Shown here in pieces: positions 34,870 to 53,572 of a stretch of DNA of 64,000 nucleotides. Under the pieces are notes generated by a model. That model did not search any database. It saw only the letters and a list, made by a program, of their open reading frames with translations, and was not told the DNA's origin. Made by a program: the position numbers and the translations under genes. This stretch comes from Acidobacteriota bacterium. Its GTDB lineage: Bacteria > Acidobacteriota > CAIWXX01. Location of the stretch: the NCBI GenBank assembly GCA_040755995.1, contig JBFMAF010000023.1:1-64000 (forward strand), given 5' to 3'. Position 1 is the stretch's first letter, and each line of letters opens with the position of its first letter.

Positions 34870-37842
34870 GTGGAGAGAAAAGAGGTAGTAGAGCTCCTCC
34901 GGCGTGCCGCGTCGCTTTCTCCTGACGACCGCGAGACGTTTGTCACGGGTATCGCCAGCGGACGGGATGCCGTCAAGGCGCTACTCGAGGAATCCGTAGC
35001 CAATCTGAAGGAGTGCCCCGACCTGCTACAGACCGCCGTCAGAGGGCCGAGCCCATTCTGGGACAAGATGCTCTCTGAGCTGGAATTGGCGCTGGGGGGG
35101 GAGGCGGAGTTGGAACCAGCGGCGGTCGAGGAGGTGAAGAAGATCGGCAGCATCCGGATCGAGGCCAGGCTCGGAGTTGGAGGCATGGGCGAGGTCTACC
35201 GCGGGTTCGACGAGAAGCTCGAGCGTAGGGTGGCCGTGAAGACGGTGAAGGCGGCCAAACGCCTGAGCCCTGATGCGAAGGCGCGTTTCATTCGGGAGGC
35301 ACGGATACTGTCGAAGCTCAACCATCCGGCCATCTGCCAGGCATATGATCTGATCGAGACGGATGAAGCAGACTACCTGGTGCTCGAGTACGTCGAGGGG
35401 CAGACGCTGCGCAAGCGGCTCACCGAGCCGATGGATTCGGCCGGGAAGATGCGGCTGGCGGTGGCTATCGCGGATGCGCTGGCCGCCGCTCACGACATGT
35501 ACGTAGTCCATCGGGACCTCAAGCCGGACAACATCATGATCACCACAGGCGGCGGCGTGAAGGTTCTGGACTTCGGGATTGCGCGCAGTGGAACGGCGCT
35601 GGGCTTGGAGGGGCAGGAGCCTCTGACTCAACGGGCGTCCGGAGGAGAACCCGCCAGTCAGGAGCATACGGAAGTCGGAGGGCTCACAGCGACTGGCGCC
35701 GTGCTTGGCACACCGCGGTTCATGAGCCCCGAGCAGATCCGAGGAGAGCCGGTCTCCTCCGCGAGCGACGTGTACTCCTATGGGCTGCTCCTTCAGGAGC
35801 TGTTCACGGGCAAGCCGGCATATCCGCACGATCTGTCATTAGGTGAGACGGCCGTTCGCGTTGCGCAGGGCAATACGGCTCCGATCGAGGGGCTCGACCC
35901 CGACCTGACACAACTCATCCGCGGCCTCACCTCCGTCAACCCCACTCTGAGACCGAGCGCGCGGGATGCATCCGAGCGGCTCCGGTGGATCGACGGCAAG
36001 CCTGCGCGCATTCGCCGGAAGCGAATCAGGATAGCGGTCACGGCCGGGGTGGCGGCAATCGCCGTTGCAGCCGGCATTGCGGTCATCGCCTACCGATATC
36101 GCGCGCTTCGTCAGGTTGAGGTCGCCCGCCGTTTCTCCGATGAGGCGAAGGATATCGAGTGGTTATTGAGGGCGGAGCACCTGATCCCTGTGCATGACAT
36201 GCGCCCTGCGAGAGCACGGATTGAAAAGAGACTTCCGGCGCTCGAGAACACGATGCGCGAGTTGGGTCGCTACGCCGTGGGACCGGGAAACGCCGCGCTC
36301 GGGCGCGCCTATCTCGGAATGCTCGAGTACGACAAGGCCCGCGCACACCTGGATGGTGCATGGGCAGCAGGCTATCGGACACCCGATGTCGCCTGCGCCC
36401 TTGGGCAGGCGATCGGGGAGCAGTACAAGAAGGCGATCGAGGGGTTGCGTGGGATCAGCGGCAGGGAGGAGCGGCAGAAGAAGCTGGCCGCCCTCCAGCG
36501 TGAATACAGGGATCCCGCCGTTTCATTCCTGCGCGCGGCGGCCGGCTCCAGCATCGTTCCGGCAGATTACGTCCACGCCCAGATCGCCGCTTATGAGAAG
36601 CGGTACGACGATGCCCTGAGTGCGGCGCGCCGCGCTTTCGACCAGGTCCCGTGGTTCTACGAGGCGAAGTGTCTGGAGGGCGAGGTTCTGAGCGCTCTTA
36701 CGCTGGACCAGCGACGAGCCGGCAAGATCGAAGAGGCCCAGGATTCGTTCCAGAGGAGCGTTGACGCCTATCACGATGCCGCCCGGATAGGCGAGAGCGA
36801 CATCAGGGCATACGTGGGATTGGTCGCCGCCTGGTTGGACCTGCTCTATTTCCAGGTAGAGACGCGCAGAGGCGGAGACAGAGAGACACTGGACAAGCTG
36901 CTTTCCGCAGTGGAGACCGGGGTCCGGATCGATCCTGTGAACCTGGATATTCTCACCGATATGGCCCACGCCAACGCCCTGTGGGCGAACTACCTACTGG
37001 GTCATGGGCTGGATCCGACCGCCGCTGTCCAGGCGTCGATCGATGCGGGTCGCCGTGCAGCAGTCGCCCACCCCATGAGCGCAGTCCCACAGAGCGAGAT
37101 CGGCCTGGCGTACTGGGTGCTGGCCAAGTGGGAAGACGCCCACGGGAAGGATCCAACGCCGAGTATCGACATGGCTGTCAGCCACGGCCGCAGGGCGGTT
37201 GAGTTGGATCCTTCCCACGAGCCGACGCGGGCTATGTTGGGCCTCGTCTACCTTGACAAGGCCATATGCGAGCTGGAGGCCGGGCAGGATCCCCGGCGAA
37301 TGGTGGATCTGGCGGTGCAGGAACTGAAGGGCGCCCTGGCACTGGACGCACGTGATGAGCCGGTCATGCTGAACCTGGCCATGACGTATCTCTTCAGGCT
37401 CGACTACGAGGTCTCTCATGATGTCGGGGATCCTCAACACACTGCGCAGGAAGCGATGATGGTCCTGGCCCGGGTGGGAAAGGCAACGCCGTACCTGTTC
37501 TGGAGCGAGCGGACCATCGGGAATGTGCACAGGTGTTTGGCTGAGTACAGGCGGAAAAGAAGCATGGATCCGACTGAGGAGATCTCCCAGGCGAGAGAGC
37601 ATCTCGAGAACGCTCTGAGCGCGGCCCCCAGCGACCAGGGCGCATGGGCGTCCCTGACCGACCTCTTTGTGCTACAGGCGCGCTGTCAGATCGACAGTGG
37701 GCGATCGCCCATGGACTCCATCCGGCTGGCCAAGGAGGCCTGCCGCAAGGGACTGGCCATCAACCCCGATCACCCTGGACTGAGGGATGTCAAAGCGGCA
37801 ATCGCGGAGTTAGAGGCCGAGTGGCGAGGACGAAGGAAGTGA
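34870..37842 (+). CDS. Ser/Thr protein kinase with TM helix and TPR-like sensor region
   Basis: GVGGMGEVY, VAVK, HRDLKPDN, DFG, SPE; N-terminal VVELLRRAASLSPDDRETFV leader typical of ECF-associated kinases; start approximate. Confidence 0.9.
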   Translation: MERKEVVELLRRAASLSPDDRETFVTGIASGRDAVKALLEESVANLKECPDLLQTAVRGPSPFWDKMLSELELALGGEAELEPAAVEEVKKIGSIRIEARLGVGGMGEVYRGFDEKLERRVAVKTVKAAKRLSPDAKARFIREARILSKLNHPAICQAYDLIETDEADYLVLEYVEGQTLRKRLTEPMDSAGKMRLAVAIADALAAAHDMYVVHRDLKPDNIMITTGGGVKVLDFGIARSGTALGLEGQEPLTQRASGGEPASQEHTEVGGLTATGAVLGTPRFMSPEQIRGEPVSSASDVYSYGLLLQELFTGKPAYPHDLSLGETAVRVAQGNTAPIEGLDPDLTQLIRGLTSVNPTLRPSARDASERLRWIDGKPARIRRKRIRIAVTAGVAAIAVAAGIAVIAYRYRALRQVEVARRFSDEAKDIEWLLRAEHLIPVHDMRPARARIEKRLPALENTMRELGRYAVGPGNAALGRAYLGMLEYDKARAHLDGAWAAGYRTPDVACALGQAIGEQYKKAIEGLRGISGREERQKKLAALQREYRDPAVSFLRAAAGSSIVPADYVHAQIAAYEKRYDDALSAARRAFDQVPWFYEAKCLEGEVLSALTLDQRRAGKIEEAQDSFQRSVDAYHDAARIGESDIRAYVGLVAAWLDLLYFQVETRRGGDRETLDKLLSAVETGVRIDPVNLDILTDMAHANALWANYLLGHGLDPTAAVQASIDAGRRAAVAHPMSAVPQSEIGLAYWVLAKWEDAHGKDPTPSIDMAVSHGRRAVELDPSHEPTRAMLGLVYLDKAICELEAGQDPRRMVDLAVQELKGALALDARDEPVMLNLAMTYLFRLDYEVSHDVGDPQHTAQEAMMVLARVGKATPYLFWSERTIGNVHRCLAEYRRKRSMDPTEEISQAREHLENALSAAPSDQGAWASLTDLFVLQARCQIDSGRSPMDSIRLAKEACRKGLAINPDHPGLRDVKAAIAELEAEWRGRRK

Positions 37843-37870: not shown

Positions 37871-38412
37871 TCACTGGTAGGTGAATGTTCCCACTGTCGT
37901 GCTAGTCACGCTGCTCGTCAACTTGACATCGACGGTGCCGGTGCCCGGAGGGCTGATGCACGTGATGATGTTCGGCTCGGTGAAGGTGATCGGTTGCAGC
38001 GCCAGCATCGACCCGAAGGGCACGTTGAACTGCGTGCCCGAGGTGCCCGCGGGCGCGAGGATCGTCACCAATGTGCCGCCGGCCGCAGGGCCGGTTGTCG
38101 GTTCGACGTTGCCGGCCGGTGTCGGCGGCAGCACGACGAAGCCATACGGATTGCTCGGTTCACCATTGTCCATTCGGTGCCGCCATCGACTGTCTTGTAC
38201 AATTCAGAAAGACTCAGCGCGTACACGGTCCCAGATCTCTTCGGGTCAATTGCCAGGCCCCAGGTGCTTCCGTCACGGATTTTGGTCCAGTTCATTCCAG
38301 CGTCCGCGCTCTTGCATACTCCCGATTTGCCGGCAGCAAACAGGATATTCGAGCTTGCGGGGTCGATCAGTAGCGCTCTTCCGTCCGTGTCGGCGTCGAT
38401 TCCCCTGTTCAT
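37871..38412 (-). pseudogene. Mosaic remnant: BNR/Asp-box repeat fragment joined out of frame to IPT/TIG fragment
   Basis: KSADAGMNW and KTVDGGTEW Asp-boxes (38160-38412); EPTTGPAAGGTLVTI...PPGTGTVDV...FTYQ (37871-38173). Confidence 0.6.
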
Positions 38413-38849: not shown

Positions 38850-40766
38850 TCAAGGCTTGATCTTGTAGACGCCCCCTCCCTCAGTCCCAGCGTAGAGTGT
38901 TCCAGGATCCTTGGGATCGAACATCAGGACTGGAATGCCGATCATCGACGGCATGCCTTCGTTCATCGGGGTCCAGGTCGCCGCTCCGTCTTCGCTTCTA
39001 TAGACCCCGGACTGCACCAGGGCAACGCAGAGGTTCGACTCGTTCTTCGGATCGATCGCGATTGCGGATGCGCATACACCGGACGACAGGCCCGTATTCA
39101 TGACCCTCCATGAGCCACCACCGTCATCACTTCGAAAGACTCCCCCATGTCCCGTCCCGGCGTAGAGAACCCCTTTGGGGCTGGACGCCAGACAATTGAT
39201 CGCGTAGTCGGCCAATCCAGCCCTCGACCACGTCGAGCCGTCGACTGTCCCCTTCCAGATCCCCTCTGCCGTCCCTACGAACAGGCGGCCGGGCGAGGTT
39301 GGGTCCGGCGCGAAGGAGGTGATTTCGCCGGCCTTCTTGAGACCGGCCGGCACCCACACACGGCCCCCATCCCTGCTTCTCATTATCCCCTTCTCGCATG
39401 TGCCCACCAGAACTGTGTCGGGACGATCCGGATGTATCAGGAGGGGACCCATATTGCATCTGCGCGGGCCGGAGGTCTCCCAAGTTGCACATCCGTCGGT
39501 TGTCTTGTACACGCCGTGCCAACCAACGGCCAGATAGACTATCTTGGAGTCCTCCGGATGGACCGCGATACCATTCACCTCTGGAGGGGAAAGCAGAGAA
39601 GGAAGTGCGAATGCCTTCCAGCCGGATCCGGCCTGCATTCCCCTGCCAGCCCAGTTCATGCCGCATGCGTAGAACACCCCGGCCGACTTCGCGTCGAACG
39701 CCAAGGCCCTCACCTGTCGCGCACAGAGCCCCTTGTTGGTCGTCGCCCACCGTGCACCTCCGTCGGTGCTCAGGTACACCCCGTCACCTGCGGTCCCCGC
39801 ACAGACGGTGGACGGGTCGGAGGGGGACAACTCCACGGTGAACACCCAAGGCCTCTTCAGGACGGCGGTCCAGGTGGTACCGCTGTCAGATGTCTTGTAG
39901 ACGCCCATATCGGTGCCTGCGTAGGCAACGTCTGCGTTCTGCGTATCCATGGCCACAGTCGAAACAGGAGGGATACCCTTACCGAATTCGCCCCAGCTGG
40001 CACCGCCATCCGTGGTTCTGTATGACTGGGAGCCGCAAGCGACAATGAGCGTGTTGGATGAGTGTGGGCTGAGGACCAGATCCATGACGGTGTTGTTCGC
40101 CAGACCCACATGGCTCCATGTGTCCCCTGCATCCACGCTCTTGAAGACACCCGATGGCTCGATGCCGGTGACACCGGCATACATGACCTTCGGGTTCGAA
40201 CGATCAATCACCAACTGTCGCACGTGCCCATAGCCAAGGGTGTGTTCCAACCAACTCCAGCTCTTCCCGCCGTTGAGGCTCTTGAAGATGCCATGGCTGG
40301 AGGTACCGGCATAGACTGTGAGTGGTCTGTTCGGATGCACTGCGATTGCCACCACCTGCATCAAGGCCAACGCACCGCCTGCCGCTGTCCAGCTCTCGCC
40401 GCCGTCGCTGCTCTTGTGAAGCCCCATGCCGGTCCCCGCATACACGAATGAAGGATTGCTGGTACTGAACGTGATGCACTGGATGAATGGATAGATGGCG
40501 TCCTCGCCCACGGCGCCCCACGAGCCACCGCGGGTCGTACTCCGGAAGATCCCACCGCCGCCGGTCCCGCACAGAACCACCGACGGATCGGCAGGATGAA
40601 ATGCCGCAGCGGCGATGTTGCCGCCATTCGGACCTATCGGAGCCCAGCGTGGCGCCGTCTCCCGGACGGATTCAACGTAGGGTGAGCGCTCACCCTGGCC
40701 GTACATCGCCGAGGTGGCAAGCGCCAGCAGTGCCGGGAGCAGGAAGAGTCTTGATCCAGATATCAT
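38850..40766 (-). CDS. Secreted BNR/Asp-box repeat beta-propeller protein (Vps10/YCF48-like)
   Basis: Signal peptide; WAPIGPNGG; many (S/T)xDGGx(S/T)W repeats. Confidence 0.85.
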   Translation of the reverse strand: MISGSRLFLLPALLALATSAMYGQGERSPYVESVRETAPRWAPIGPNGGNIAAAAFHPADPSVVLCGTGGGGIFRSTTRGGSWGAVGEDAIYPFIQCITFSTSNPSFVYAGTGMGLHKSSDGGESWTAAGGALALMQVVAIAVHPNRPLTVYAGTSSHGIFKSLNGGKSWSWLEHTLGYGHVRQLVIDRSNPKVMYAGVTGIEPSGVFKSVDAGDTWSHVGLANNTVMDLVLSPHSSNTLIVACGSQSYRTTDGGASWGEFGKGIPPVSTVAMDTQNADVAYAGTDMGVYKTSDSGTTWTAVLKRPWVFTVELSPSDPSTVCAGTAGDGVYLSTDGGARWATTNKGLCARQVRALAFDAKSAGVFYACGMNWAGRGMQAGSGWKAFALPSLLSPPEVNGIAVHPEDSKIVYLAVGWHGVYKTTDGCATWETSGPRRCNMGPLLIHPDRPDTVLVGTCEKGIMRSRDGGRVWVPAGLKKAGEITSFAPDPTSPGRLFVGTAEGIWKGTVDGSTWSRAGLADYAINCLASSPKGVLYAGTGHGGVFRSDDGGGSWRVMNTGLSSGVCASAIAIDPKNESNLCVALVQSGVYRSEDGAATWTPMNEGMPSMIGIPVLMFDPKDPGTLYAGTEGGGVYKIKP

Positions 40767-40925
40767 GGTCATCTCCAAGTTACTCTATCGTTGTGTTCGA
40801 ATGGGGCCTTCCTACGGCAGCACCATGTGGTGCTCGGCCCGGTGACTCCCGGTGTCCGTCCAGGGGGGAGATCATGGCGAAGGCATTCCTGATTGCCGCT
40901 TGCCGCTCCCACTCACACTCAATAG

Positions 40926-40953
40926 AACGACAACGTGAGGCGTTTGCCGCCAT
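40926..40953 (-). promoter_or_regulatory. Putative ECF promoter copy 1 (ATGGCG-N15-TGTCGTT)
   Basis: About 160 nt upstream of gene 38850-40766 on the same strand. Confidence 0.65.
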
Positions 40954-40984
40954 CCCGCAGGTCCGTGCCGGGGCGCGGACCAGT

Positions 40985-41565
40985 GCCTTTGTGGCGAGAC
41001 TGGGCAGCAAGGGATCGCTCATCTGGCACGCGTTTCTCGGCGGCGTCGGAGTCGACATCGGCGGCGGCCTCTGCGTTGACGGCAGCGGCAGCGTCTACGT
41101 GACGGGTACCAGCGATTCATCCTGGGGCGCGCCGACCAGGGCTTTCACAGGTGGCTACGACGCCATGGCTGCGAAGCTGGACTCCAGCGGATCGCTCATC
41201 TGGCCCACCTTCCTTGGTGGGTACGAAGACGACATGAGCTATGGGACTGCAGGCGGCGCGGACGGCAGCGTACACGTGACGGGCACAAGCGAATCCAGGT
41301 GGGACGGCTCTGCCATCCCGCCCCCGGCAGACTACAACGCCTTCGTGGCAAAGCTCGTGGAAACCCAGTCCGGTCCGACGATCACGAAGATCAAATCGAA
41401 GCGTCCGACCGCAGGCAGTACGGCGACAATCATCGGCGCGGGCTTCTCCTCGAACAAGACCGCCAATGCCGTCTACTTCGGCAACCTCAAGGCCGAGGTC
41501 AAGCGAGCGCGAACGCGGTCGTCAACGGGGTCAAGAGCAACTCGATGCCGTTCACGGTGAAGTAG
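40985..41565 (+). pseudogene. Degraded 3' duplicate of SBBP-IPT gene 43067-44710
   Basis: Colinear with 44075-44710; 5' part missing; 58-bp deletion between ACG repeats frameshifts the IPT domain. Confidence 0.8.
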
Positions 41566-41663
41566 GCGCGCCTCGCGGGCCGGGCGAGCGTCAGGTGTGC
41601 TGGAGAGCTGCCGGCCGCTCCCCGTGTTTCTGCGGCCGCCGTCGGCCACATGGCAGAAATCCA

Positions 41664-41691
41664 GTGGCGCCTCCGCTGGCCGTCTGTCGTT
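41664..41691 (+). promoter_or_regulatory. Putative ECF promoter copy 2 (GTGGCG-N15-TGTCGTT)
   Basis: Part of segment duplicated with 44711-44860; no intact gene downstream. Confidence 0.55.
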
Positions 41692-41714
41692 CTCAGGAGT
41701 GAAGGGTCGAAAGA

Positions 41715-42130
41715 GTTTCGCACACCAGGCGTCGGCGTCCTCAATAGAGAGCCTCTGCCCTACAAGGATGCAGCCTCCATCACTCATGGTCTCCATGGAT
41801 GTGACCTGGAGCCCCAGCACTGTGGGATCCTCGCACTCCCGCCCACGCTCGACCCGTCGTAGATGACCACGACATGCTGCCAGGTCGAAGACGCCAGAGG
41901 TGACGTCGAGACCAGTGCGGCGCCTCCTTTGTGGGTGAGCCTGATGTGCCCGCTGCTCAGCAGTTCCAATCCGTACGCCACACTCGCCGCGTTCGAGAAC
42001 TGGCGCTAAAAGAGCACGCCCTTCGACCCCGGGTTCGCTTTCACCCACATGGCCACACTCAGTTCCTCGTCATTCCGGCGCAACGCCGGGCTGTCGTGGA
42101 GGTACCCCGGATTGCCGCCGCGGTTTTCAT
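41715..42130 (-). pseudogene. Mosaic remnant: LamG-like jellyroll fragment with in-frame stop plus fragment of 49298-50971 paralog
   Basis: LSVAMWVKA...VLF*...YGLEL...WQHVVVIYDG; then SMETMSDGGCILVG...DAWCAKL matching SMEATSDGGCVLVG...DAWCGKL. Confidence 0.6.
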
Positions 42131-42143
42131 GCACACTCAATAG

Positions 42144-42171
42144 AACGACAACGCGAAGCTTCTCCCGCCAT
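42144..42171 (-). promoter_or_regulatory. Putative ECF promoter copy 3 (ATGGCG-N15-TGTCGTT)
   Basis: Just downstream of the ECF gene, pointing into the LamG remnant. Confidence 0.6.
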
Positions 42172-42294
42172 CCCGCACGCCCCGGCCCTCCCGTCGAGTC
42201 TGCGCCGAAGTCGCCATGATGCGGGGAGTCCGACGCAGGCTCCCGTCGCCGTCCACCACCCGAGAGAACAGCGATAGGGATCGCGCCTGACCCG

Positions 42295-42858
42295 TCAGGG
42301 AGCGAGCGCGGCACGGAGCAGTTCCCGTGCCTCCCGCCAGGCACGTTCGGCCGTGCGAACGGAGACGCCGAGCGCGTCGGCCGTCTCTTCCTCGCTCAGT
42401 CCGGCGAAATAGCGGCACTCGACCACGCGCACGAGTCGCTCGTCCTGGGCGGCCAGGCGCGTCAGGGCGTCGTCGAGCATCAGCATCCTTTCCGCTTCCG
42501 CCTGCACGGCCAGCTGCACCTTGTCCACGTCCACCGGAGTCTGGCCTCCGCCGCGCTTGGACCTGAGCTGCCGTTTGGCGAAGTCCATCACGATCTGCCG
42601 CATGACGCGAGCCGCCACCGCGAAGAAATGGCCGCGGTCCTGGTAGTCGACAGGCGCGCCGGCCGCGAGCTTCAGGTAGGCCTCGTGCACGAGACTGGTC
42701 GTTCCCATTCCCCTTCTCCGTGCGCGATACTGGAGCTGCCGCCTCGCGATCCGTCGCAGGTCGTCATAGACGGCGGCCATGACCTGATCCAGCGCGCCTG
42801 GCTCGTTGCGCACGTGCGCCCGCAACAGCTCGGTCAACTCGTGTAACGCCGGCTTCAT
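42295..42858 (-). CDS. ECF sigma factor, TIGR02999/ECF43-like
   Basis: YDDLRRIARRQL...GTTSLVHEAYLKL...DRGHFFAVAARVMRQI...KRGGG...RVVECRYFAGLSEEETA. Confidence 0.9.
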   Translation of the reverse strand: MKPALHELTELLRAHVRNEPGALDQVMAAVYDDLRRIARRQLQYRARRRGMGTTSLVHEAYLKLAAGAPVDYQDRGHFFAVAARVMRQIVMDFAKRQLRSKRGGGQTPVDVDKVQLAVQAEAERMLMLDDALTRLAAQDERLVRVVECRYFAGLSEEETADALGVSVRTAERAWREARELLRAALAP

Positions 42859-42967
42859 GGGCCTCCGTGTGCGCAGTATACCCCAACCGGCGAGCGCGGG
42901 GTGTCCCCGTTTCTCGTCGCTCGCGCGAGCGACAGCGTCATCCCGGTCGCCTCCATGAGGATTCCAC

Positions 42968-42995
42968 GTGTCGGGTCTGGACTCCTCTTGTCGTT
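42968..42995 (+). promoter_or_regulatory. Putative ECF promoter copy 4 (GTGTCG-N15-TGTCGTT)
   Basis: 71 nt upstream of ATG 43067. Confidence 0.65.
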
Positions 42996-43066
42996 CTCAC
43001 CAGTTGGGAGGCTGATGCACGATGCCCGGGTCCATTGGCCTTTCATGATGAAGAGGAGGAAATCCG

Positions 43067-44710
43067 ATGGGCACGAAGCGTGAATCGATTCTATCCGGAT
43101 TGTATCCGGCTACCTGTGGCTTGACGGCCATGTTGGTTGGGTGTGCGTTCCTGGTGGTGGCGACCTGTGGGGCGAGCAGCGCGATGACAGAGGTGGGCGA
43201 TACGTCGCCTTCTTCTGCCGGTGAATACTCATGGAGCAGGTACTTCGGCGGGAGCGACGTGGACTGTGCCAACGCGATCGCCGTGGACAGCTGGGGGAAT
43301 ACCTATCTTGCCGGCCACAGCAACAGGACCTGGGGCTCGCCGCTGCGTCCTTACACCGGCGGCTTCGATGCCTTCGTGGCAAAGATCGACGCGAATGGCT
43401 CTCTGATCTGGAACACCTTCATCGGAGGCGCCGGTGACGACCGTGCGTACGGAATCGCCGCAGACGAGAAAGGGGACGTCTACGTTGTCGGCGAGGTGAC
43501 GAATTCCTTTGGGATGACTGGCGTGGACGGATTCGTGTTCAAGTACGATGCCAACGGCACGCTCGATTGGGACATGGTGTTAGGCGGTCTCGGGAGCGAC
43601 TCGGTCTCGGGAGTCGTGTCGGATGGACGCGGGAGCGTGTTCCTGGTGGGCACCAGCGAGAACGCCTGGGACTGGACCGCCTTGGGCGTGCCCTTGATCA
43701 GGCCGTACACGGGAGATAGTGACGTCTTCGTGATAAAGATGAACGAAACCACCGGAGCTCTATGGACCACCTTTCTCGGAGGCAGCGCGTACGACGTGGG
43801 AGAGGGCATCTCGGTGGATGCCGAAGGGAGCGTCCGGGTGGCCGGGCTCAGCCTCGGCGGCTGGGGCTCGCCGGTCCGCCCCTATACAGCCACCGACGGA
43901 TTCGTCGCGAGGCTCGACGCCAACGGGTATCTTCTCTGGAACACCTTTCTCGGCGGTGCCGACTACGAGACCTGCCGCGGAGTATCCGTCGACCGGACGG
44001 GGAACGCCTATGTCGTGGGTTCAGCTGGTGGCCCGTGGGGCAATCCCGTCCGGCCGTTCGCCGGGCGCTTCGACGTCTTCGCGGCGAGACTGGGCGGCGA
44101 CGGATCGCTCCAGTGGAATGCTTTTCTCGGAAGCAGTGGTTTGGACATCGGCGCGGGCATCAATGTTGACGGCGGCGGCAATGCCTACGTGACAGGGATC
44201 AGCGATTCCTCGTGGGGCGTGCCGACGAGAGCCTTCACGGACAGCTACGATGCGATTGCTGCGAAGCTGGACTCGAACGGATCGCTCCTCTGGAACACCT
44301 TCCTTGGCGGGTGGGGAGAGGACGCCGGCTACGGCATCGCGGCAGGCACGGACGGCAGCGTCTTTGTGGCGGGTGGCTGCACATCCATGTGGGGGGGCAG
44401 CGTCATTCCGCCAGAAACAAACCATGCCTTCATGGCCAAGCTCGTGCAACCCCAATCCGGTCCCACCATCACGCAGATCAAGTCGAAACGCGCCACACGC
44501 GGCAGCGCTGCGACCGTCATGGGCAGTGGCTTCTCCGCGAAGAAGACCGACAATGTCGTCTACTTCGGCAACCTCAAGGCCGAGATCAAGCGAGCGCGGA
44601 CGACCAGGCTCCAGGTGAAGATCCCGATGAAATGCAAGAAGGGGCAGGTGATGGTGTACGCAGTGGTCAAGGGGGTCAACAGCAACTCGGTGCCGTTCAC
44701 GGTGAAGTAG
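43067..44710 (+). CDS. Secreted SBBP-repeat beta-propeller protein with C-terminal basic IPT domain
   Basis: GAGGAGG RBS; repeats DAFVAK...WNTFLGG...D.A.GIAVD..GN.YV.G; ends PTITQIKSKR...PFTVK. Confidence 0.85.
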   Translation: MGTKRESILSGLYPATCGLTAMLVGCAFLVVATCGASSAMTEVGDTSPSSAGEYSWSRYFGGSDVDCANAIAVDSWGNTYLAGHSNRTWGSPLRPYTGGFDAFVAKIDANGSLIWNTFIGGAGDDRAYGIAADEKGDVYVVGEVTNSFGMTGVDGFVFKYDANGTLDWDMVLGGLGSDSVSGVVSDGRGSVFLVGTSENAWDWTALGVPLIRPYTGDSDVFVIKMNETTGALWTTFLGGSAYDVGEGISVDAEGSVRVAGLSLGGWGSPVRPYTATDGFVARLDANGYLLWNTFLGGADYETCRGVSVDRTGNAYVVGSAGGPWGNPVRPFAGRFDVFAARLGGDGSLQWNAFLGSSGLDIGAGINVDGGGNAYVTGISDSSWGVPTRAFTDSYDAIAAKLDSNGSLLWNTFLGGWGEDAGYGIAAGTDGSVFVAGGCTSMWGGSVIPPETNHAFMAKLVQPQSGPTITQIKSKRATRGSAATVMGSGFSAKKTDNVVYFGNLKAEIKRARTTRLQVKIPMKCKKGQVMVYAVVKGVNSNSVPFTVK

Positions 44711-44810
44711 GCGAGCAGCCCGGGTCGGGCAAGCTTCCGGGGGCGCTGGTGAGCCCCCGGCCGCTCCCCCGCGCCCCGGCAGCCGCCGTCGAGCAGATGG
44801 CGGAAATCCA

Positions 44811-44838
44811 GTGGCGGCTCAGGCGGCCCGTTGTCGTT
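44811..44838 (+). promoter_or_regulatory. Putative ECF promoter copy 5 (GTGGCG-N15-TGTCGTT)
   Basis: 44 nt upstream of ATG 44883. Confidence 0.65.
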
Positions 44839-44882
44839 GTCAGGAGTGAAGGGTCCGAAAGACACAACAAGGAGGATCGAAC

Positions 44883-46112
44883 ATGACCATGATCGAGCGA
44901 ATGAGAACCGTCGCCTTGCTGGCGCTGGCTGTAGTGGCCGCCGCCACGCCCGTCGCCGCTCAAAACGCAGGCGACCTGTACGCCGTGGATTCGATAGTCG
45001 GGAATCTCAGATGGGTGCCCGCCACGGGGCCGGGTGGATTCGTGCAGGGGTACCCCGGCGGCGATCCATGCTTCGCCGTGCCCCCCTATCAATTCGTGCA
45101 TGTCCTCACGAGAGACCTGGCGGTCATGGAGACCGAGGTGTCGCAGCAGATGTGGGAGAACCTCAAGGCGCGGCAGCCGGGTCTGCCCTCGGTCCCCTTC
45201 TACAACCCCGGAGCCAACAAGCCCGCCGAGGCGATCGATTGGTACACTGCAGTCCTGTACGCGAATCTCCTCTCGCTCCAGCAGGGACTCACCCGGTGCT
45301 ATTACACCGACAGCAGCATGACCGTGCCCATTGACGGCACCAACTATGCAGGGAATGACGCAGTGTACTGCAACTTCGACGCGGACGGCTATCGGCTCCC
45401 CACGGAGGGAGAGCGAGAGTACTTCACTCGCGCAGGGACGACTGGACCGTTCTCGATCGACGAACCCGAGTATGATGCCAGCATGTGCTATTCCATCGGA
45501 CCGTCGCCGGGCCCGGGAACCCTTCCGGCGCTCGAATCCGTGGCCTGGTTCAGCTTCAACTCCGGATTGGCAACGCACGATGTCGGCACTAGGTTGCCGA
45601 ATCCGTGGAACCTCCATGACGTGCATGGAAATGTCTGGGAGTGGTGCTGGGACTGGAAGGAGACGTATGGGACGTATCCGACGGGAACGGTCGTCGACTA
45701 CACGGGCCCTGCCAACGGAGACGGCAGGGCGATTCGAGATGCATCATTCAAGTATGGCCCGAAGTCTCTGACTTACTACTGGGCAGCGTGCGGCACGCCC
45801 CCGTTCGAGTGGGTCGACGGCGGATTCCGGCTCGTGCGTACCATCGTCCCGGTGCCATCCGGGCCGGTGATCGATTCGATCAAGAGCAAGCAGAGCAGGC
45901 CCGGATCGAAGGCCACCATCCGGGGGACCGGCTTCTCGCCCAAGAAGTCCGAAAACACCGTCTTCTTCGGCAAGAAGAAGGTTACTAAGATAAAGAAGGC
46001 AAGCGAGAAGCAGCTGCAGGTCGTCATACCTCAGGTTCGCAAGGGATGGATCGACGTAACCGTCGTCGTGGGCGGACAGACGAGCAGCGCGTACCCCTTC
46101 CTCGTGAAGTAG
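44883..46112 (+). CDS. Secreted FGE-sulfatase (SUMF1-fold) domain protein with C-terminal basic IPT domain
   Basis: Signal peptide; ETEVSQ, YRLPTEGEREY, PNPWNLHDVHGNVWEWCWD, GFRLVR; IPT tail. Confidence 0.85.
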   Translation: MTMIERMRTVALLALAVVAAATPVAAQNAGDLYAVDSIVGNLRWVPATGPGGFVQGYPGGDPCFAVPPYQFVHVLTRDLAVMETEVSQQMWENLKARQPGLPSVPFYNPGANKPAEAIDWYTAVLYANLLSLQQGLTRCYYTDSSMTVPIDGTNYAGNDAVYCNFDADGYRLPTEGEREYFTRAGTTGPFSIDEPEYDASMCYSIGPSPGPGTLPALESVAWFSFNSGLATHDVGTRLPNPWNLHDVHGNVWEWCWDWKETYGTYPTGTVVDYTGPANGDGRAIRDASFKYGPKSLTYYWAACGTPPFEWVDGGFRLVRTIVPVPSGPVIDSIKSKQSRPGSKATIRGTGFSPKKSENTVFFGKKKVTKIKKASEKQLQVVIPQVRKGWIDVTVVVGGQTSSAYPFLVK

Positions 46113-46167: not shown

Positions 46168-46446
46168 TCCGAGGTCCTCCCAGACGAGAAGATCGCCCGT
46201 GTGATGGGGCTGCGGACGCATAGAACCGAGATGGGGCTGATATGGACACGAGGACGCATCAACTGCTTCAGAAAGGAGCACGGAATCCCCGCCTATGGCA
46301 AACGCCCGAACAGCGTAACCACACCGCCACACTCGACTCGACGTGTTGATCTCTGTCGAGCAACCAGCTATCATGCTTAACCTTGAGGCCCTGCTGTAGC
46401 TGCATGTCCTGAAGCTATGCAGATTCTCGACATCAAGGAGGATCAC

Positions 46447-48009
46447 ATGTCTCGACGGATATCGCTGACGGGTGTATCGTTGATGGTCGTATGCATTGCG
46501 GCTCTCATCACGACGGGGATGCAGAATGGCGCTCCCGGCGGGCCGATCAAGGTCAAGATGAAGAAGCTCAACACCAGCCGCTTCGAGACGTTTGGAGGGC
46601 TCTCCTCCTGGTCGCAGACCCCTTCGAACGAAGGTACGGTGCCGTCAGACGCCGACGCCTACATGTTGTTCTACGACTCTTCCGGGCAAGAACGCGGCGC
46701 TACCGGCTCCCAGTTCGACAGGCTGTGGCTGCAGCGACTTTGGGATGACGGCGTCCATGGAATGAAACAGTTCGGTTCGCCCAACATGACATATTTTGTT
46801 GGCAGCGGGATGCTCTCAGTAACCGGCGATCCTAACGACGGTGCGGTGTTCCTTACTTTGTGGAATACGGAGAACAAGACTCTGACGACAGTATCCGCGC
46901 CATTCGACAAGATCGATAGTCTCGACTGGGCCAAGGGTCTATTCCCGGAACAAAAGACACCTCCGCCAATCGGACAGGATGGGACGGTCGATATCTACAA
47001 CGACCAGAAAGCCCTGCATGCCGGCGAGATCCCCGGCAGCAAGGGCGTGCGCGCCAACAAGGACAATGCCGCCGTGGGTGTCCTCAGCCAGTCATCCTGG
47101 TATGAGTACGGTGACAACTATATAGGAGCCAACAGTGCAACTGTAAGGTTCTCACAATCAAGCGACTGGGCGAGCGAGGATCCACACTGGACGACGAACA
47201 TCGTCTGGAAGGGGAAGAAACAACTGGCAATGATCGGGCCGCTGCAGCCATCTGGTCCGGGGACGGTCATTTTTCCATTCGCCATCGACCAGTATGGGGC
47301 GGATTCCGGTGCCCTCGCGTCGTTGAAGACCAGCACGGCGTTCACCGGCTCCGTCAAGGGCAAGAAGGTCTCGAAGAGCCAGGTGGTCAAGTACACCCAG
47401 GAGCGCGTGCCGGCTTTCGGATCGCTAGCGTTTCTTGCACAGGACGATGGGAATGCTCGCGATCAGGAAACCGCGGATACGACGCAGATACTCTTTTACC
47501 AATTCCGCAACGCCGAGAAGACGCACTGCGTGTTGGAGAGGTATGGAGGGGAGTACTACTTCCAGCCCATCAAAGGCGGGAAGAAGTCGGGCGCTCCAAC
47601 GGTTATCCCAGTCCCCTTCTGGCAGCACAAGCAGAAGCCCGGGGCCGAGAACTACATTCGAGCCTGGGATGAACAGGTCTCCAATTTCGTGGCTCTCGGA
47701 AACAGCCGCCACATGTGCATTCTCACAAAGCACCTCTACACGGAACCCAGGCAGGCCGGGAACACGGCATCGATCCCGACCCTCACCTATACCGACGCGC
47801 TCTTGCAGGTGCTGGTCTTCGACCTTGCGAAGAAGACAGTGGAAGTCGCAGCGACCCTTGGAATCCCGCTCAGAGAGGGTGACACCTTCTGCCAACCCAC
47901 TGTCTTCATATCGGGGGCCAACTATGTCTTCTACGTCGAGAGGTATAATCAGAAGAGCTGGTTGCGCGAGGCTTTCACCGGCGCGGTGAGTGCCTCTTCG
48001 ATCCACTGA
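46447..48009 (+). CDS. Exported or membrane-anchored hypothetical protein
   Basis: AAGGAGG RBS; MSRRISLTGVSLMVVCIAALITT leader; no family recognised. Confidence 0.75.
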   Translation: MSRRISLTGVSLMVVCIAALITTGMQNGAPGGPIKVKMKKLNTSRFETFGGLSSWSQTPSNEGTVPSDADAYMLFYDSSGQERGATGSQFDRLWLQRLWDDGVHGMKQFGSPNMTYFVGSGMLSVTGDPNDGAVFLTLWNTENKTLTTVSAPFDKIDSLDWAKGLFPEQKTPPPIGQDGTVDIYNDQKALHAGEIPGSKGVRANKDNAAVGVLSQSSWYEYGDNYIGANSATVRFSQSSDWASEDPHWTTNIVWKGKKQLAMIGPLQPSGPGTVIFPFAIDQYGADSGALASLKTSTAFTGSVKGKKVSKSQVVKYTQERVPAFGSLAFLAQDDGNARDQETADTTQILFYQFRNAEKTHCVLERYGGEYYFQPIKGGKKSGAPTVIPVPFWQHKQKPGAENYIRAWDEQVSNFVALGNSRHMCILTKHLYTEPRQAGNTASIPTLTYTDALLQVLVFDLAKKTVEVAATLGIPLREGDTFCQPTVFISGANYVFYVERYNQKSWLREAFTGAVSASSIH

Positions 48010-48543: not shown

Positions 48544-49101
48544 CTACTTCTCTGGATTCTCCCCGCCCGCGGCTCCGAAGTACAGATAGAGTTTCCCGCC
48601 GTAGGCTCGTACGTCACCGGTTCCGCTTCGGTAGAGTTGGAACTCGACGAAGTAGTAGTAGTCCCAGAAGTTCCAGCTGTGGTTGACGTCGACTGCCCCG
48701 AACTGGGTGCCGGTTCCTGCAAACCGGTTGCTGTCGAATGTGGCGACGGTTGAGGTGGAGCCGGTCGTGCGCGACACCCTTCTGAGGTAGGCCTTGACGC
48801 TGTTGGCTGTGGCAGTGCCGTCGGGATCCTTGAAGGTAAGTCCGAACCGATCCCACCCGGGATTCTGCCCCCCATCGTCCGGGTTGTTGACGTTGCAGCG
48901 CATCACTATGTAACCGGTGACACCTGTCTTGAAATAGACCTCTTCATAGGTTGCCAGGTAGTCGTTGACATCGCCTTCGTCAACGACGCAGGCAGAGGCA
49001 ACGCAATTCCAGTAAGGGCCCACCTGGCCGAAGGAAGCCGCCGGCAGTGCGAGGGCCAAGGCGGCGCCTATGAGTGTGATCAAGGTTATGCGGCGATCCA
49101 T
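48544..49101 (-). CDS. Small secreted hypothetical protein
   Basis: AAGGAG RBS; signal peptide MDRRITLITLIGAALALALPAASFG; Cys-containing beta-rich mature part. Confidence 0.75.
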   Translation of the reverse strand: MDRRITLITLIGAALALALPAASFGQVGPYWNCVASACVVDEGDVNDYLATYEEVYFKTGVTGYIVMRCNVNNPDDGGQNPGWDRFGLTFKDPDGTATANSVKAYLRRVSRTTGSTSTVATFDSNRFAGTGTQFGAVDVNHSWNFWDYYYFVEFQLYRSGTGDVRAYGGKLYLYFGAAGGENPEK

Positions 49102-49297: not shown

Positions 49298-50971
49298 TCA
49301 CCGGAACTTGTGTGCCGCCTTGTTGTTCCCCTCGTCGTCCTCGGCGACTGCGTTGGCGCTGTCGGTGTCGGCGATCACGTACTTGTCCTTCGTTCCAGGT
49401 TTCGCCTTCACTTTGAAGGAGTAGGCCCCGAACGCCCCCAGCCCCGGGACGTCAACTGTCTTGACGAGAGTCGCTTTGCGCCCGGTGCCGTTCTTCTTCG
49501 AGAAGTAGACCTTGATCGTGAAGGGTCCCGCCGCGGCAGATCCGGAGTTCACGCAGACCATGGTTGCATTCAGCTTCTTCTTCTTGAACTTGACATTGCT
49601 CCAGGATCCGGTCAGGTCAGGGGCCGGCGGCGAGCTGCAATGTAGTGTGACAACCGCGGGCACCGCAGATGGGGCTGCCGTCGACGCGACGCCGATGACG
49701 GCGGTGTCGACGATCGCCGCGGTTGTGGGAGTCGCCGGGAGCGCGGGATACGCGGGGACAACCGAGGAGGGCTGGGGGTTGCACGATGGATCGATTTCTC
49801 CCATCGAGTCGGTGCGACCTACGAAGGTGCTACGCTCCGACCCGTGCGAGTTGTTTCCTGCGAACAGGAAGCCCCCGTCTGAGAGTACCCGCGCCGCCAC
49901 GCTCTCCTCCTGATCAGGACCGGCCGCGGATTTCTGCCACAGCAAGGCGCCGCCGGCGTTGAGCTTCGCCATCCACGCATCGTGTCCCATCGCACCCACA
50001 CGAAGCATTCCAGCGGCAACGTAGCCGCCGTCGCTTGTCTGGCGGACATCGGACAGCCAGGGCTTCGCGGGGTCCGTATCAGGAAACCCCGTCTGCCAAC
50101 TGACAGCTCCCGTGGCCGCCAGCTTCACGATTCTGCTCCCCCCCATGCCCCCGGCCTCCCAGAAGGTGGCGCTCATGATGTAGCCGCCGTCGGAGGTCTG
50201 GTGGATTCTGGTATTCATCGCGGGCTGGCCCTGGGAGATTCCGTAACCCATTTGCCACTTGACACCGCCCGAAGAATCCAGGTTGAGACACCATATCTGG
50301 AACTTGGGAGACGCAAACGTAGAGCTGACCCCTGAGACGATGAAGCCGTTGTCAGAAGTCGGCCGGACGCATTGACTGCTTTCTACCCCGGCACCACCGT
50401 AGGCTCGCTGCCAGATGACATTGCCCGAAGCATCAAGTCTCAAGCACCACGTGTCCTTGCTACCAGAAACGGAGGACTCAGTGGTTCCTGCGACGATGAA
50501 GCCTCCTCCAGCCAGTGCGCGCCCTGACCCCCCATAATCATCTCCAGCTCCACCATATGTCTTCTGCCAGATGATGTTGCCCGTTGGACCGAGCAGCAGG
50601 CACCACAGGTCGGCGTCACCCGCGCCGTATGAGCACGTCAGACCAGTGACGAAATAACTGCCGTCTGCCAGGGGACAGACGTCCGTGAAGGTGTCGTAGA
50701 ACACCGCTCCGCCAAAGGCCCACATCCAGGAGACGTTCCCCTGAGCATCGAGTTTCCCACACCAGGCGTCGACATTCACCCCAGAAAACCTCTCCCCTAC
50801 AAGGACACAGCCTCCATCACTCGTGGCCTCCATTGATCTGAGCAGGAGCTGCCCCGCCGGATCCTCAATCCCTACCGCCCATCGGGCGGCGGCGTGCGCG
50901 AGGCCGGCTGACATGAGCAATGCCATCGCGGCCCACGCGGACACGCACGTGCGAGATCTTGATGAAATCAT
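49298..50971 (-). CDS. Secreted beta-propeller repeat protein with C-terminal basic CARDB domain
   Basis: Repeats QTSDGGY..AG...D.W..KL...G...WQK.YGG; PDLTGSW...VNSG...AEDDEGNN. Confidence 0.8.
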   Translation of the reverse strand: MISSRSRTCVSAWAAMALLMSAGLAHAAARWAVGIEDPAGQLLLRSMEATSDGGCVLVGERFSGVNVDAWCGKLDAQGNVSWMWAFGGAVFYDTFTDVCPLADGSYFVTGLTCSYGAGDADLWCLLLGPTGNIIWQKTYGGAGDDYGGSGRALAGGGFIVAGTTESSVSGSKDTWCLRLDASGNVIWQRAYGGAGVESSQCVRPTSDNGFIVSGVSSTFASPKFQIWCLNLDSSGGVKWQMGYGISQGQPAMNTRIHQTSDGGYIMSATFWEAGGMGGSRIVKLAATGAVSWQTGFPDTDPAKPWLSDVRQTSDGGYVAAGMLRVGAMGHDAWMAKLNAGGALLWQKSAAGPDQEESVAARVLSDGGFLFAGNNSHGSERSTFVGRTDSMGEIDPSCNPQPSSVVPAYPALPATPTTAAIVDTAVIGVASTAAPSAVPAVVTLHCSSPPAPDLTGSWSNVKFKKKKLNATMVCVNSGSAAAGPFTIKVYFSKKNGTGRKATLVKTVDVPGLGAFGAYSFKVKAKPGTKDKYVIADTDSANAVAEDDEGNNKAAHKFR

Positions 50972-52794
50972 CGCGTTTCCTCCTTGTTGGACTTCCAAGT
51001 ATCATTCTCGCCTTCACCGGCGCGTGCCACGCGCACGCTATCAGTGAGGCCCGTCATCGCTGCACAAGTCCGGGGGCGGTCCAGTCCCGGCGTGAATCTC
51101 GGTCCATGCTGCATTCCGCGAGCTCTACGCATGGTCGTCGTCCTCCCAGCCTCGATCTGGCGGAACCGCCTTGCTATCGTGTTGTTCGTCTCATCATCCT
51201 CAGCCACCGTGTTTCCGGCATCGATGACCGCAATGATGTACTTGTGATTGCGCCCCGGAGAAGCTCTGATCTTGAAGGATTCCGATCCGAATGCCGGGAG
51301 ACCGGCGCACTTCAAGGTCTTCACGGGCCTCACCCGGCGTGGCGGCACTATTCCGTTGGAAAGGTACACGTGGACGGTGAATCTCCCCGTGGGGAGTACG
51401 CCGCCGTTGGTTACGACCAAAGTCCCGTTCAATCGCGATCGTACGAGCCCGATGCTGGTCCAGGTTCCCGTCGCGTCCGGTGCATTGGGAGAAACACAGC
51501 CCTTGTTGACCAGCACGACTGTGCTTGCCGGAGCGGCGGCCGACGCAGCACTGACTGAAGACGTTGCAGCTGCCGTCGCAGTCGCCGGAACCGCCGAGTA
51601 GCCAACAGGTTCGGGGGATATCATCGTGTCTTGCGACGGGTATCCTGTGCACACGTCGCCCAGCCACGACGCGTGCATGACGAACTGAGCAAACGGTGTA
51701 GTGTCGGCGGAGCCGGCAACGATGAGCCCCCCGAGAGTGGTGACCCGCATCGCGCCCCCATACTCATCTTCCGGTCCGCCGATCGACTTCTGCCAGGCGA
51801 TCCTTCCGGTTTGATCCAGCTTGACCAACCAGCAGTCACGCGAGGATCCCGTAACCTGGCCGCAGGCGATGTAGCCTCCATCCGGGGCTTCCTGGACACT
51901 CGTGAGCAACGGTCGGGCCGGTTCCGACCACGAAATGTACTTCACCCAGAGTACTCTTCCATTCGCTGTGAGCTTCATGATGAAAGAGTCCAGGTCCGCC
52001 TTTCCGAGCAGTACGTACCCTCCGTCCGTTGCCTGTTGCAGGCCTGTCGCGAGCGCCGGCGGGCCGCCTCCGTACACCATCTGCCATGCCACACTCCCGT
52101 CGGTATTCAGCTTGAGACACCAGAGCTGGTTGGTGGTTTCAGACCTCAGGGAGCCGGCGAGAACAAAGCGGCCGTCTGCAGCCTGCCATATGCCAACTGC
52201 GTTGCTGAAGCTCGATCGTCCGTAGGCATTCTGCCAAAGGACGTTCCCGGCGCCGTCGAGTCTCAGGCACCAGGCGTTCATGATTGTGCCCGGCCCGTAC
52301 GAGGCTGTGGTTCCCGCGACGATAAAGCCCCCGCCTGCGACCGAGTCGCACGCGCTACCGACATCGAAGCCTGGCCCGCCGTGTGTCTTCTGCCAGATCA
52401 CGTTGCCACCCGGGCCCAGCAGAAGGCACCATAGGTCAGCATCCCCGGCCCCGTAAGAATAGGTCTGGCCCACGACGAAGCAACTCCCGTCGTCCAGGGG
52501 CCGGACTTCCTCAAACTTGTCTTTGCTGGAGCCGCCGTATCGATACGACCAGACAACGTTCCCCAGGAAATCCAGCTTCGCGCACCAGGCATCCAGATCG
52601 TCATGAACGCCTGGTGTCGAACCCGCCAGGATGAATCCGCCTTCCGGGAGTTGCCTGATATCCTCGATGTGGTACCCCGCAGGTGGATTAGCCAGGGTTT
52701 CATACCAGCGGGCCGTCGAATGCGCCCCTGCGGCGGACAAGAGGAAGGCGAATGTCATCACACCGGTAATCAGAGCCTTCGGAAGCAAGTTCAT
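50968..52794 (-). CDS. Paralogous secreted beta-propeller protein with basic CARDB domain and read-through tail
   Basis: GGAGGAG RBS; same repeats; PDATGTW...AEDDETNNTIARRFR then about 64 extra residues. Confidence 0.8.
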   Translation of the reverse strand: MNLLPKALITGVMTFAFLLSAAGAHSTARWYETLANPPAGYHIEDIRQLPEGGFILAGSTPGVHDDLDAWCAKLDFLGNVVWSYRYGGSSKDKFEEVRPLDDGSCFVVGQTYSYGAGDADLWCLLLGPGGNVIWQKTHGGPGFDVGSACDSVAGGGFIVAGTTASYGPGTIMNAWCLRLDGAGNVLWQNAYGRSSFSNAVGIWQAADGRFVLAGSLRSETTNQLWCLKLNTDGSVAWQMVYGGGPPALATGLQQATDGGYVLLGKADLDSFIMKLTANGRVLWVKYISWSEPARPLLTSVQEAPDGGYIACGQVTGSSRDCWLVKLDQTGRIAWQKSIGGPEDEYGGAMRVTTLGGLIVAGSADTTPFAQFVMHASWLGDVCTGYPSQDTMISPEPVGYSAVPATATAAATSSVSAASAAAPASTVVLVNKGCVSPNAPDATGTWTSIGLVRSRLNGTLVVTNGGVLPTGRFTVHVYLSNGIVPPRRVRPVKTLKCAGLPAFGSESFKIRASPGRNHKYIIAVIDAGNTVAEDDETNNTIARRFRQIEAGRTTTMRRARGMQHGPRFTPGLDRPRTCAAMTGLTDSVRVARAGEGENDTWKSNKEETR

Positions 52795-53118
52795 CTCTCC
52801 TCCATGGACGACCCGCCAACGACTGTGAAGAGGGCCGGCACGAGCTCCATTACACGTGTGCTTCTCTACGGATGTGCTTCTCATGGAAGACCTCCCGTTT
52901 TTCCATTTGTTCCCGACGACCTCTCTGTCCACGCCACCCGTGCCACAAACACCGCGGCACTCGGCGTCGACCACTCGCCTGCACCGACGCGTGCCCATTG
53001 CACGCGATCAAGTGCCTGTCAGCGTCACTCCCCCCCTGTGCACGATCCGTGCCTGCGCCGTTGGCGCGCCGAGGAGTTGTTTTTCAATGCACTATGGCCA
53101 GCAGGGTGGGCATGCCCG

Positions 53119-53237
53119 GTACTTGAGTACACATCCTTCCGCACTCCTTGGCGGGCTGGACTAACAAAACGTGGCCGAAACGCTGCCATCTCAGGATGTG
53201 TACTGCGGTACTTGGCGTGTGAGTACCTGTGTACTCA
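53119..53237. promoter_or_regulatory. Three GTAC-N4-GTAC boxes in divergent intergenic region
   Basis: 53119-53130, 53200-53211, 53223-53234. Confidence 0.5.
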
Positions 53238-53572
53238 GCCAGGACCGTGAGCCGTGTCTGCACAGGTCGCCCCTCCGCAGTGCCCATTCCCAGCGAACGG
53301 TGGTACACGCGTGGCAGTTGGGGATTGTGTATGATTCTCAAGCGATTCGACAACCTACGGCTGATGGGGGCGTGTACCCGGGTATCCAGAGTAGGGTGGG
53401 CTTGACTCGTAACTCATTGAGACCCCTGCACCCTGCCCGGGCGATGGCGCTGGCACGGAACGTGCCTCATGAGGCAGTGAGATGAAGGCACATGATTCGA
53501 AGCGACATCACCCGCACAGGTCCTGGTCGGGTGGTGTCGAAACCCCGAACAGGATTTCAAGGAGGACACGGA

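Follow-up and report, generated by a model that had tools for sequence, protein, structure and literature searches.

What controls the secreted-protein genes that surround an extracytoplasmic function (ECF) sigma factor gene in an Acidobacteriota bacterium? The question is raised by a 64,000-nucleotide (nt) stretch of contig JBFMAF010000023.1 (assembly GCA_040755995.1, positions 1 to 64,000 of the forward strand), referred to below as the window. A sequence-only reading of this stretch had noticed five copies of a two-part motif, RTGKCG-N15-TGTCGTT, around the gene for a sigma factor of the TIGR02999 family. The analysis presented here points to an answer in which the motif is probably the promoter of this adjacent ECF43-type sigma factor, driving three predicted secreted proteins upon probable activation by a kinase.

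The sigma factor gene and the five motif copies

The elements on which the argument turns are listed below; ranks refer to a cross-genome matrix that is described in the next section.

42295..42858, reverse strand: ECF43-type sigma factor gene (TIGR02999, PF07638), 187 amino acids (aa), with GTTS including T54 in region 2.2 and SVRTAER in region 4.2
40926..40953, reverse strand: motif copy 1, before the gene starting at 40766, predicted leader about 150 nt; duplicate of copy 3; rank 47
41664..41691, forward strand: motif copy 2, duplicate of copy 5; target deleted about 23 nt downstream; rank 126
42144..42171, reverse strand: motif copy 3, downstream of the sigma factor gene, pointing into a broken LamG-like fragment; rank 5
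42968..42995, forward strand: motif copy 4, divergent from the sigma factor gene, predicted leader about 63 nt before 43067; rank 1
44811..44838, forward strand: motif copy 5, before gene 44883, predicted leader about 36 nt; rank 37

All five copies are present where they had been reported, and the motif occurred in none of 100 shuffles. The genome scanned comprises 7.74 Mb in 56 contigs, is 99.8% complete and includes 1.07 Mb of non-coding DNA. It holds eight exact matches to RTGKCG-N15-TGTCGTT, five of which fall inside 3.9 kb around the sigma factor gene, and spacers of 12, 13, 14, 16, 17 and 18 nt give 1, 0, 0, 3, 2 and 0 matches, respectively. The remaining three exact matches all lie on contigs without any of the 13 other TIGR02999 paralogues. 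Similarly, the tail said to follow the motif, as TGTCGTT(C/G)T-N4-AGT, is found six times genome-wide, five of them here.

Two pairs of copies share their surroundings. The flanks of copies 1 and 3 (40888-40959 and 42107-42177) are 81% identical over 72 nt, and those of copies 2 and 5 (40987-41714 and 44077-44862) align at 76-81%. Because these flanks are duplicated, the window holds three independent motif lineages rather than five, as the sequence-only reading had already estimated. Its statement that spacers diverge while boxes are kept also holds. Between lineages, spacers agree at 1-9 of 15 positions (mean 5.6/15, slightly above chance), and copies 2 and 5 are identical at 13/13 box, 8/15 spacer and 25/30 upstream positions, although the extension of the -35 box has decayed in copy 2. 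The claim that all five copies are intergenic needs a qualification for copy 1, which lies formally within a frame on the opposite strand (40487-41560); only from 40987 on does this frame show homology to a real gene. A reading of the sites as terminators or sigma-70 elements was rejected, with one weak hairpin overlapping copy 3 and counts near the shuffle level.

The sigma factor itself matches TIGR02999 with 181.6 bits (cut-off 126.15) and PF07638 with an E value of 2.5e-45. ECF43 proteins are described as matching the Sigma70_ECF domain of Pfam in place of separate models for regions 2 and 4 (PMC7826278). In addition, the acidic DAED motif of region 2.2 is replaced in them by serine or threonine (S/T) residues with a conserved threonine (Thr), the consensus being QTTA (PMC13147305, PMC8999054). 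Both features are found in the window's sigma factor. It has the Sigma70_ECF domain in place of the two separate models, and DAED has given way to GTTS at residues 52-55, as first reported, which aligns with QATA, QTTA or QPTA in paralogues. The T54 column holds Thr in 112 of 128 aligned sigma factors and glycine (Gly) in 8/128.

The genome carries 14 TIGR02999-like genes. One paralogue, on contig C32, belongs to the same clade as the window's sigma factor, and a second paralogue within the window (6894-7424, forward strand) belongs to another clade and is without the motif. A close orthologue was not found, the best matches being 50-61% identical. In a quick IQ-TREE tree, the window's sigma factor falls within a supported clade of 25 rows (SH-aLRT 96).

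Conservation of the motif beside related sigma factors

At the homologous sister-genus locus (G001:C66), a kinase gene is convergent with the gene of a 54% identical sigma factor and propeller/CARDB genes follow; a one-mismatch site precedes a beta-propeller/CARDB gene 4.4 kb from the sigma factor gene. A further 13 loci of the closest sigma factors suggested a longer -35 box. In a discovery set of 24 loci with sigma factors at least 47% identical, TG[GT]CGGG-N16-CGT was found in non-coding DNA of 8, against 0-3 at ten other spacings, and 78 more distant loci gave 6, against 0-4 at other spacings. Coding masks were produced by a home-made hexamer gene caller, and the non-coding calls are approximate for that reason. 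A blind pattern scan of metagenomes returned 120 matches, most of them put down to chance; 92 fell within frames of at least 150 codons. One locus (L247) has a same-clade sigma factor gene, the site lying antisense over its start with a divergent lipoprotein-like gene downstream. The other 119 matches were set aside, as no ECF43 gene was present in the available flanking DNA, which in 40 cases was about 300 nt or less. With the window and L247 left out, the motif is present in 8/23 clade loci vs 5/76 others (Fisher p 0.0016).

A held-out set of 29 new Acidobacteriota loci was then scanned with the pattern set beforehand; one locus (L298) was dropped as a duplicate of L013, leaving 28. TG[GT]CGGG-N16-CGT was found in non-coding DNA of 8/28 loci (10 sites) vs 0-3 at eleven other spacings, and in 7/28 under a strict mask. 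The corresponding p values are 2e-4 and 2e-5, or 0.004 without two congeners of discovery genomes. Coding DNA of the same loci shows no spacing peak, and the motif density per 100 kb of non-coding DNA is 24 in held-out loci vs 0.56 in this genome. The held-out result has what is looked for in a predicted ECF promoter, namely two boxes at a set spacing, in non-coding DNA and beside one sigma factor clade.

The motif as first written fared less well. Exact RTGKCG-N15-TGTCGTT has two matches in two same-family genomes, neither at the homologous locus, and the form RTGKCG..CGTT occurs in 1/28 held-out loci, without a spacing peak. Across genomes, the conserved form of the element is TG(G/T)CGGG(T)-N16-CGT, and the TGT..T and AGT positions are specific to this genome's copies.

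A hand-collected set of 22 sites, drawn from 19 loci in other genomes, was combined into the cross-genome matrix. Columns that had not been selected are kept among them: T follows the -35 box in 18/22, and G or T stands two bases before CGT in 22/22. Among 20 sites at loci of at least 47% identity, 12 lie upstream on the opposite strand, 7 downstream and 1 upstream on the same strand, the last being 4.4 kb from its sigma factor gene. The genes downstream often, not always, encode hydrophobic N-termini. Moreover, position 168 of the recognition helix is arginine (Arg) in 20/21 motif-bearing sigma factors vs 60/106 others, and the C32 paralogue also has Arg there.

The sites are very probably promoters. 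The -35 element would be TG(G/T)CGG(G/T), followed 16 bases on by CGT as the -10 element. If the C of CGT is position -12, a numbering that we assume from other ECF promoters, transcription is predicted to start at the AGT, at about 40917, 43004 and 44847.

Some candidates elsewhere were not retained. In another genome (G017:C3), a match at a distance of 2 kb from an ECF43 gene was taken as chance, as it lies antisense within a peptidase-like coding frame. No spacing peak emerged when relaxed box pairs were sought in 90 mixed ECF43 loci, and eight homologues with an FGE domain in G001 and G002 had no convincing upstream site.

Other sites in the same genome

A matrix built from the five copies finds one clear extra site in this genome, at C41:35195 (reverse strand), with a score of 25.0, the next best reaching 18.5. 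This site sits 35 nt before a paralogue of the window's FGE-IPT gene (68% DNA identity); the boxes are kept and the upstream flank has diverged. The C41 contig has no TIGR02999 gene. A genome-wide regulon of beta-propeller/IPT paralogues was rejected, as among the matches listed scores above 14 were confined to the window's genes and the C41 paralogue, and other paralogues of the targets had no site there.

Under the cross-genome matrix, 494 non-coding sites of this genome score 8 or more, and copies 4, 3, 5, 1 and 2 rank 1, 5, 37, 47 and 126. TG[GT]CGGG-N16-CGT occurs 6 times in the non-coding DNA of the genome vs 1-12 times at other spacings, without a peak. Further non-coding fits lie at G000:C44:23725 (forward), C52:2843 (reverse) and C33:45240 (forward), the total of 6 being at background level. 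The C44:23725 site has the second-highest rank genome-wide and lies before a small open reading frame convergent with a Ser/Thr kinase gene.

Predicted targets and gene remnants

Copies 1, 4 and 5 each precede an intact gene for a protein with a signal-peptide-like N-terminus, giving three predicted live targets, and copies 2 and 3 point into remnants.

38850..40766, reverse strand: predicted target, BNR/sortilin-type beta-propeller (F510_1955 family), 638 aa, hydrophobic N-terminus
43067..44710, forward strand: predicted target, SBBP beta-propeller with C-terminal IPT/TIG, 547 aa, hydrophobic N-terminus
44883..46112, forward strand: predicted target, FGE-sulfatase-like domain with IPT/TIG, 409 aa, signal-peptide-like N-terminus
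40987..41714, forward strand: remnant, duplicate of the SBBP-IPT gene's 3' half and of the intergenic DNA that follows it; carries copy 2
41713..41832, reverse strand: remnant, derived from the 5' portion of the beta-propeller/CARDB gene 49298-50926
41835..42090 (approximate limits), reverse strand: LamG/ConA-like remnant with an internal stop, once the target of copy 3 (PF13385 at E 2e-05, short of the curated cut-off)

The proposal of a local secreted-protein regulon of the neighbouring sigma factor gains support from the held-out test. Its description of the products as beta-propellers needs amending for one target, which is FGE-sulfatase-like with IPT. As a class, the predicted targets are likely surface or envelope proteins.

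The region 40987-42100 is a mosaic of gene debris. Since the copy at 40987-41714 joins directly to a copy of 50750-50849, the duplicate has lost about 5.9 kb. Probably a block was duplicated and parts of it were then deleted, leaving copies 2 and 3 behind as orphan promoters.

Several observations concern the neighbouring genes. An isolated IPT/TIG fragment at 37871-38173 (reverse strand) is probably another remnant; at the homologous G001 locus, a large gene has a 3' end with 66% DNA identity to it. A 67-nt piece of gene 46417-48009 (47355-47421) is repeated 11 kb away at 58630-58696 with 97% identity, a recent duplication. The open reading frames 46417-48009 (forward) and 48544-49101 (reverse) have signal-peptide-like starts, no Pfam or NCBIfam match and one genomic paralogue each. 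Additionally, the genome has a large expansion of secreted proteins with a similar IPT/TIG tail (at least 44 rows) or a CARDB tail, together with BNR/SBBP propellers. A 27-nt inverted repeat (78%, arms 55 nt apart) lies at 53111-53219, in the intergenic DNA that separates the divergently oriented 50968-52998 and 53492-55315.

The candidate kinase partner

In ECF43 systems, the switch is a Hanks kinase that phosphorylates the second Thr of the motif replacing DAED (PMC13147305, PMC8999054). A candidate for this role lies in the window.

34870..37842, forward strand: candidate partner, Hanks Ser/Thr receptor kinase, 990 aa, with Gly loop, VAVK, HRDLKPDN and DFG intact

This kinase has one membrane helix near 390-410 and C-terminal TPRs, and the ECF43 feature of a co-occurring Hanks kinase with a single membrane helix and extracytoplasmic TPRs is found here. 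Its N-terminal domain is of the ECF43-linked type (E 1.8e-06), judged by a profile built from 17 kinases of ECF43 loci. The profile matches 8 of 50 Ser/Thr kinase frames, this one included, and six of the other seven have a TIGR02999 gene no more than 1.5 kb away. Neither the second kinase of the window (55893) nor the C32 kinase matches it. In related loci, the kinase gene lies at +1, at -1 or convergent with the sigma factor gene.

The earlier suggestion of a kinase-activated sigma factor is borne out as far as the Thr and an intact kinase are concerned; the kinase is not adjacent, and activation is argued from the family. By analogy, kinase activation of the window's sigma factor is probable, and the product of 34870-37842 is reasonably likely to be the activator. 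An extracytoplasmic signal would act on the TPR receptor kinase, which would phosphorylate T54, and the resulting holoenzyme would transcribe from copies 1, 4 and 5. The best sense-strand matrix scores before the sigma factor and kinase genes are -4.7 and 2.1, giving no autoregulatory site. The circuit would not be autoregulatory, because no site points into either gene.

Two residues deserve mention beside the kinase. The linker column of D110 (window 42529-42531) is Thr or Ser in 77/128 relatives and S/T/D/E in 91/128, and it may be equivalent to T106 of EcfK. The homologous sigma factor L029 (G001:C66:3060-3620, reverse strand) has SSAD in region 2.2, with no acceptor Thr, an adjacent aspartate and an adjoining kinase gene.

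Strength of the promoter reading and alternative explanations

A number of results weigh against the promoter reading. The window itself holds only three independent lineages, and the full GGG of the -35 box is present in copies 3 and 4 only. Copies 5, 1 and 2 reach no better than ranks 37, 47 and 126 with the cross-genome matrix, on which the C41 site falls below 8, and the window's sites were already known when the core of that matrix was chosen. A de novo word-pair search over 90 mixed ECF43 loci gave background only. In the held-out set, 20/28 loci lack a match. If the seventh base is left free under the lenient mask, the count is 8 vs up to 9 and the peak disappears. Six Gemmatimonadota loci gave 0/6 automatically and 1/6 by hand, that site having been masked by the simple gene caller. 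On the quick tree, the motif label showed no clustering in a parsimony test, 85/500 shuffles being as low, and the p values are overstated because related genomes are not independent. A kinase gene at +1, typical of the ECF43 context and not universal in it, is absent here; the candidate lies 4.4 kb downstream and convergent. The -10 box also departs from a published ECF43 prediction, which has CAG there (PMC7826278).

Because the genome has 14 TIGR02999-like genes, one of them of the same clade, assignment of the sites to the window's sigma factor rests on proximity. As the principal rival, the C32 paralogue, 56-57% identical and encoded directly behind its own kinase, might be the main or a shared reader of what would still be ECF43-clade promoters. 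It is the sister of the window's sigma factor in the tree, its region 4.2 pattern is alike (SLRTVQR vs SVRTAER), its kinase gene is adjacent and co-oriented, and the C41 site, on a contig without a TIGR02999 gene, makes action at a distance plausible. However, no site occurs within 4 kb of the C32 gene, whose flanking intergenic DNA reaches matrix scores of 1-3 at best, whereas five sites surround the window's gene, the best of them in the divergent arrangement that is commonest elsewhere (12/20 sites). This makes the C32 alternative unlikely, and it is highly probable that the window's sigma factor, not only the C32 paralogue, reads the sites. That some other regulator does so, for example an ECF41/ECF42-type sigma factor or a transcription factor, is very improbable: about 45 other sigma-70 region 2 domains exist in the genome and copy 4 starts with TGTCG as the ECF42 -35 box does, but PF20239 has no match in this 99.8% complete genome, and TIGR02957 and TIGR02960 have no full-length or above-cut-off match. 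We take these three models as markers of ECF42, ECF41 and ECF56. Furthermore, the motif follows ECF43-clade genes across genomes and has no genome-wide non-coding peak.

Local duplication could account for the likeness of the copies by descent only, the circuit being dead and its sites relics. The debris at 40987-42100, the duplicate pairs 1/3 and 2/5, the slight excess of spacer identity between lineages, the loss of the -35 extension in copy 2 and the separation of the kinase and sigma factor genes fit such a view. It is nevertheless very unlikely, as boxes are kept while spacers and flanks are at background, the C41 paralogue at 68% nucleotide identity retains its boxes beside a diverged upstream flank, frames are intact in the sigma factor, the kinase and three targets, and the motif is enriched beside related sigma factors in unrelated families. 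A different doubt concerns the kinase, since the sigma factor could read its sites without one, or with another, if D110 already supplies the charge at the linker. The linker position is S/T/D/E in 76.9% of ECF43 proteins (PMC13147305); the column of D110 is so in 91/128 aligned sigma factors; EcfK requires phosphorylation at either T51 or linker T106 (PMC13147305); and the homologous G001 sigma factor with SSAD lacks the Thr. Against this, the mapping of D110 to T106 was made without the EcfK sequence, T106E did not render EcfK constitutive (PMC13147305), and the window's sigma factor keeps T54 and has no acidic residue in region 2.2. Dependence on no kinase or on another one is quite unlikely. 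The promoter reading, with the window's sigma factor as reader, is the one carried forward.

Relation to known systems

Two kinase-activated systems offer the closest comparison. In EcfP/PknT of Vibrio parahaemolyticus, too, S/T residues take the place of DAED (STTA, compared with GTTS in the window's sigma factor), the second Thr being the phospho-acceptor in EcfP, with a Hanks kinase nearby (PMC8999054). It differs in belonging to another phylum; here the kinase is non-adjacent and the predicted outputs are secreted beta-propeller/IPT proteins. EcfK/PknS of Xanthomonas citri shares the ECF43 assignment, the Thr of region 2.2, a membrane receptor kinase and a neighbouring set of exported proteins (PMC13147305). 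EcfK differs in having QATE and a second, linker site at T106, and in driving a type VI secretion system (PMC13147305). Such secretion genes, unlike in the case of EcfK, are not among the window's targets.

Comparison of the promoters is also informative. ECF41 promoters are given as TGTCACA/CGTC and ECF42 promoters as TGTCGAT/CGTC, which resemble the sites here in a -35 box starting with TGTC and a -10 box with CGT (PMC7826278). In these sites, the -35 box continues with GGG(T), and they mostly point away from the sigma factor gene. ECF41 and ECF42 sigma factors have C-terminal extensions and are autoregulatory, whereas the window's sigma factor has 187 aa and no extension; a sigma factor with a SnoaL or TPR C-terminal extension, expected for an ECF41/ECF42 regulon, was not found in the genome. 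In register (7+16+CGT), the sites resemble the ECF41 and ECF42 boxes. The ECF43 promoter predicted in the ECF reclassification, for a group of proteobacterial members only, has GTC at -35 and CAG at -10 (PMC7826278). Its GTC fits -35 boxes of the TGTCG type, and CAG differs from the CGT of these sites. A tested ECF43 promoter sequence was not found in the literature searched, where the subgroup logos and Table S2 of PMC7826278, a source available in part, may bear on novelty. The mechanism is of an already known kind, and the promoter prediction, which is well supported, was not found in the literature searched.

Significance

A broader proposal has somewhat better than even standing. A widespread, Acidobacteriota-centred ECF43 subclade with the recognition helix S-x-R-T-x-x-R would read TG(G/T)CGGGT-N15-CGT pointing away from the sigma factor gene, and the regulon here would be in the course of being rebuilt, promoter cassettes being duplicated and spliced before different secreted-protein genes. 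Since such promoters point away from the sigma factor gene, they would not be autoregulatory and would be missed by promoter prediction based on upstream regions.

ECF43 is a model of sigma factor activation by direct phosphorylation, with two systems described in detail in the literature searched, and the present finding adds to this known mechanism rather than introducing a new one. A promoter that holds on held-out genomes would make regulons readable in uncultured Acidobacteriota, which are rich in such sigma factors, as the 14 in this genome illustrate.

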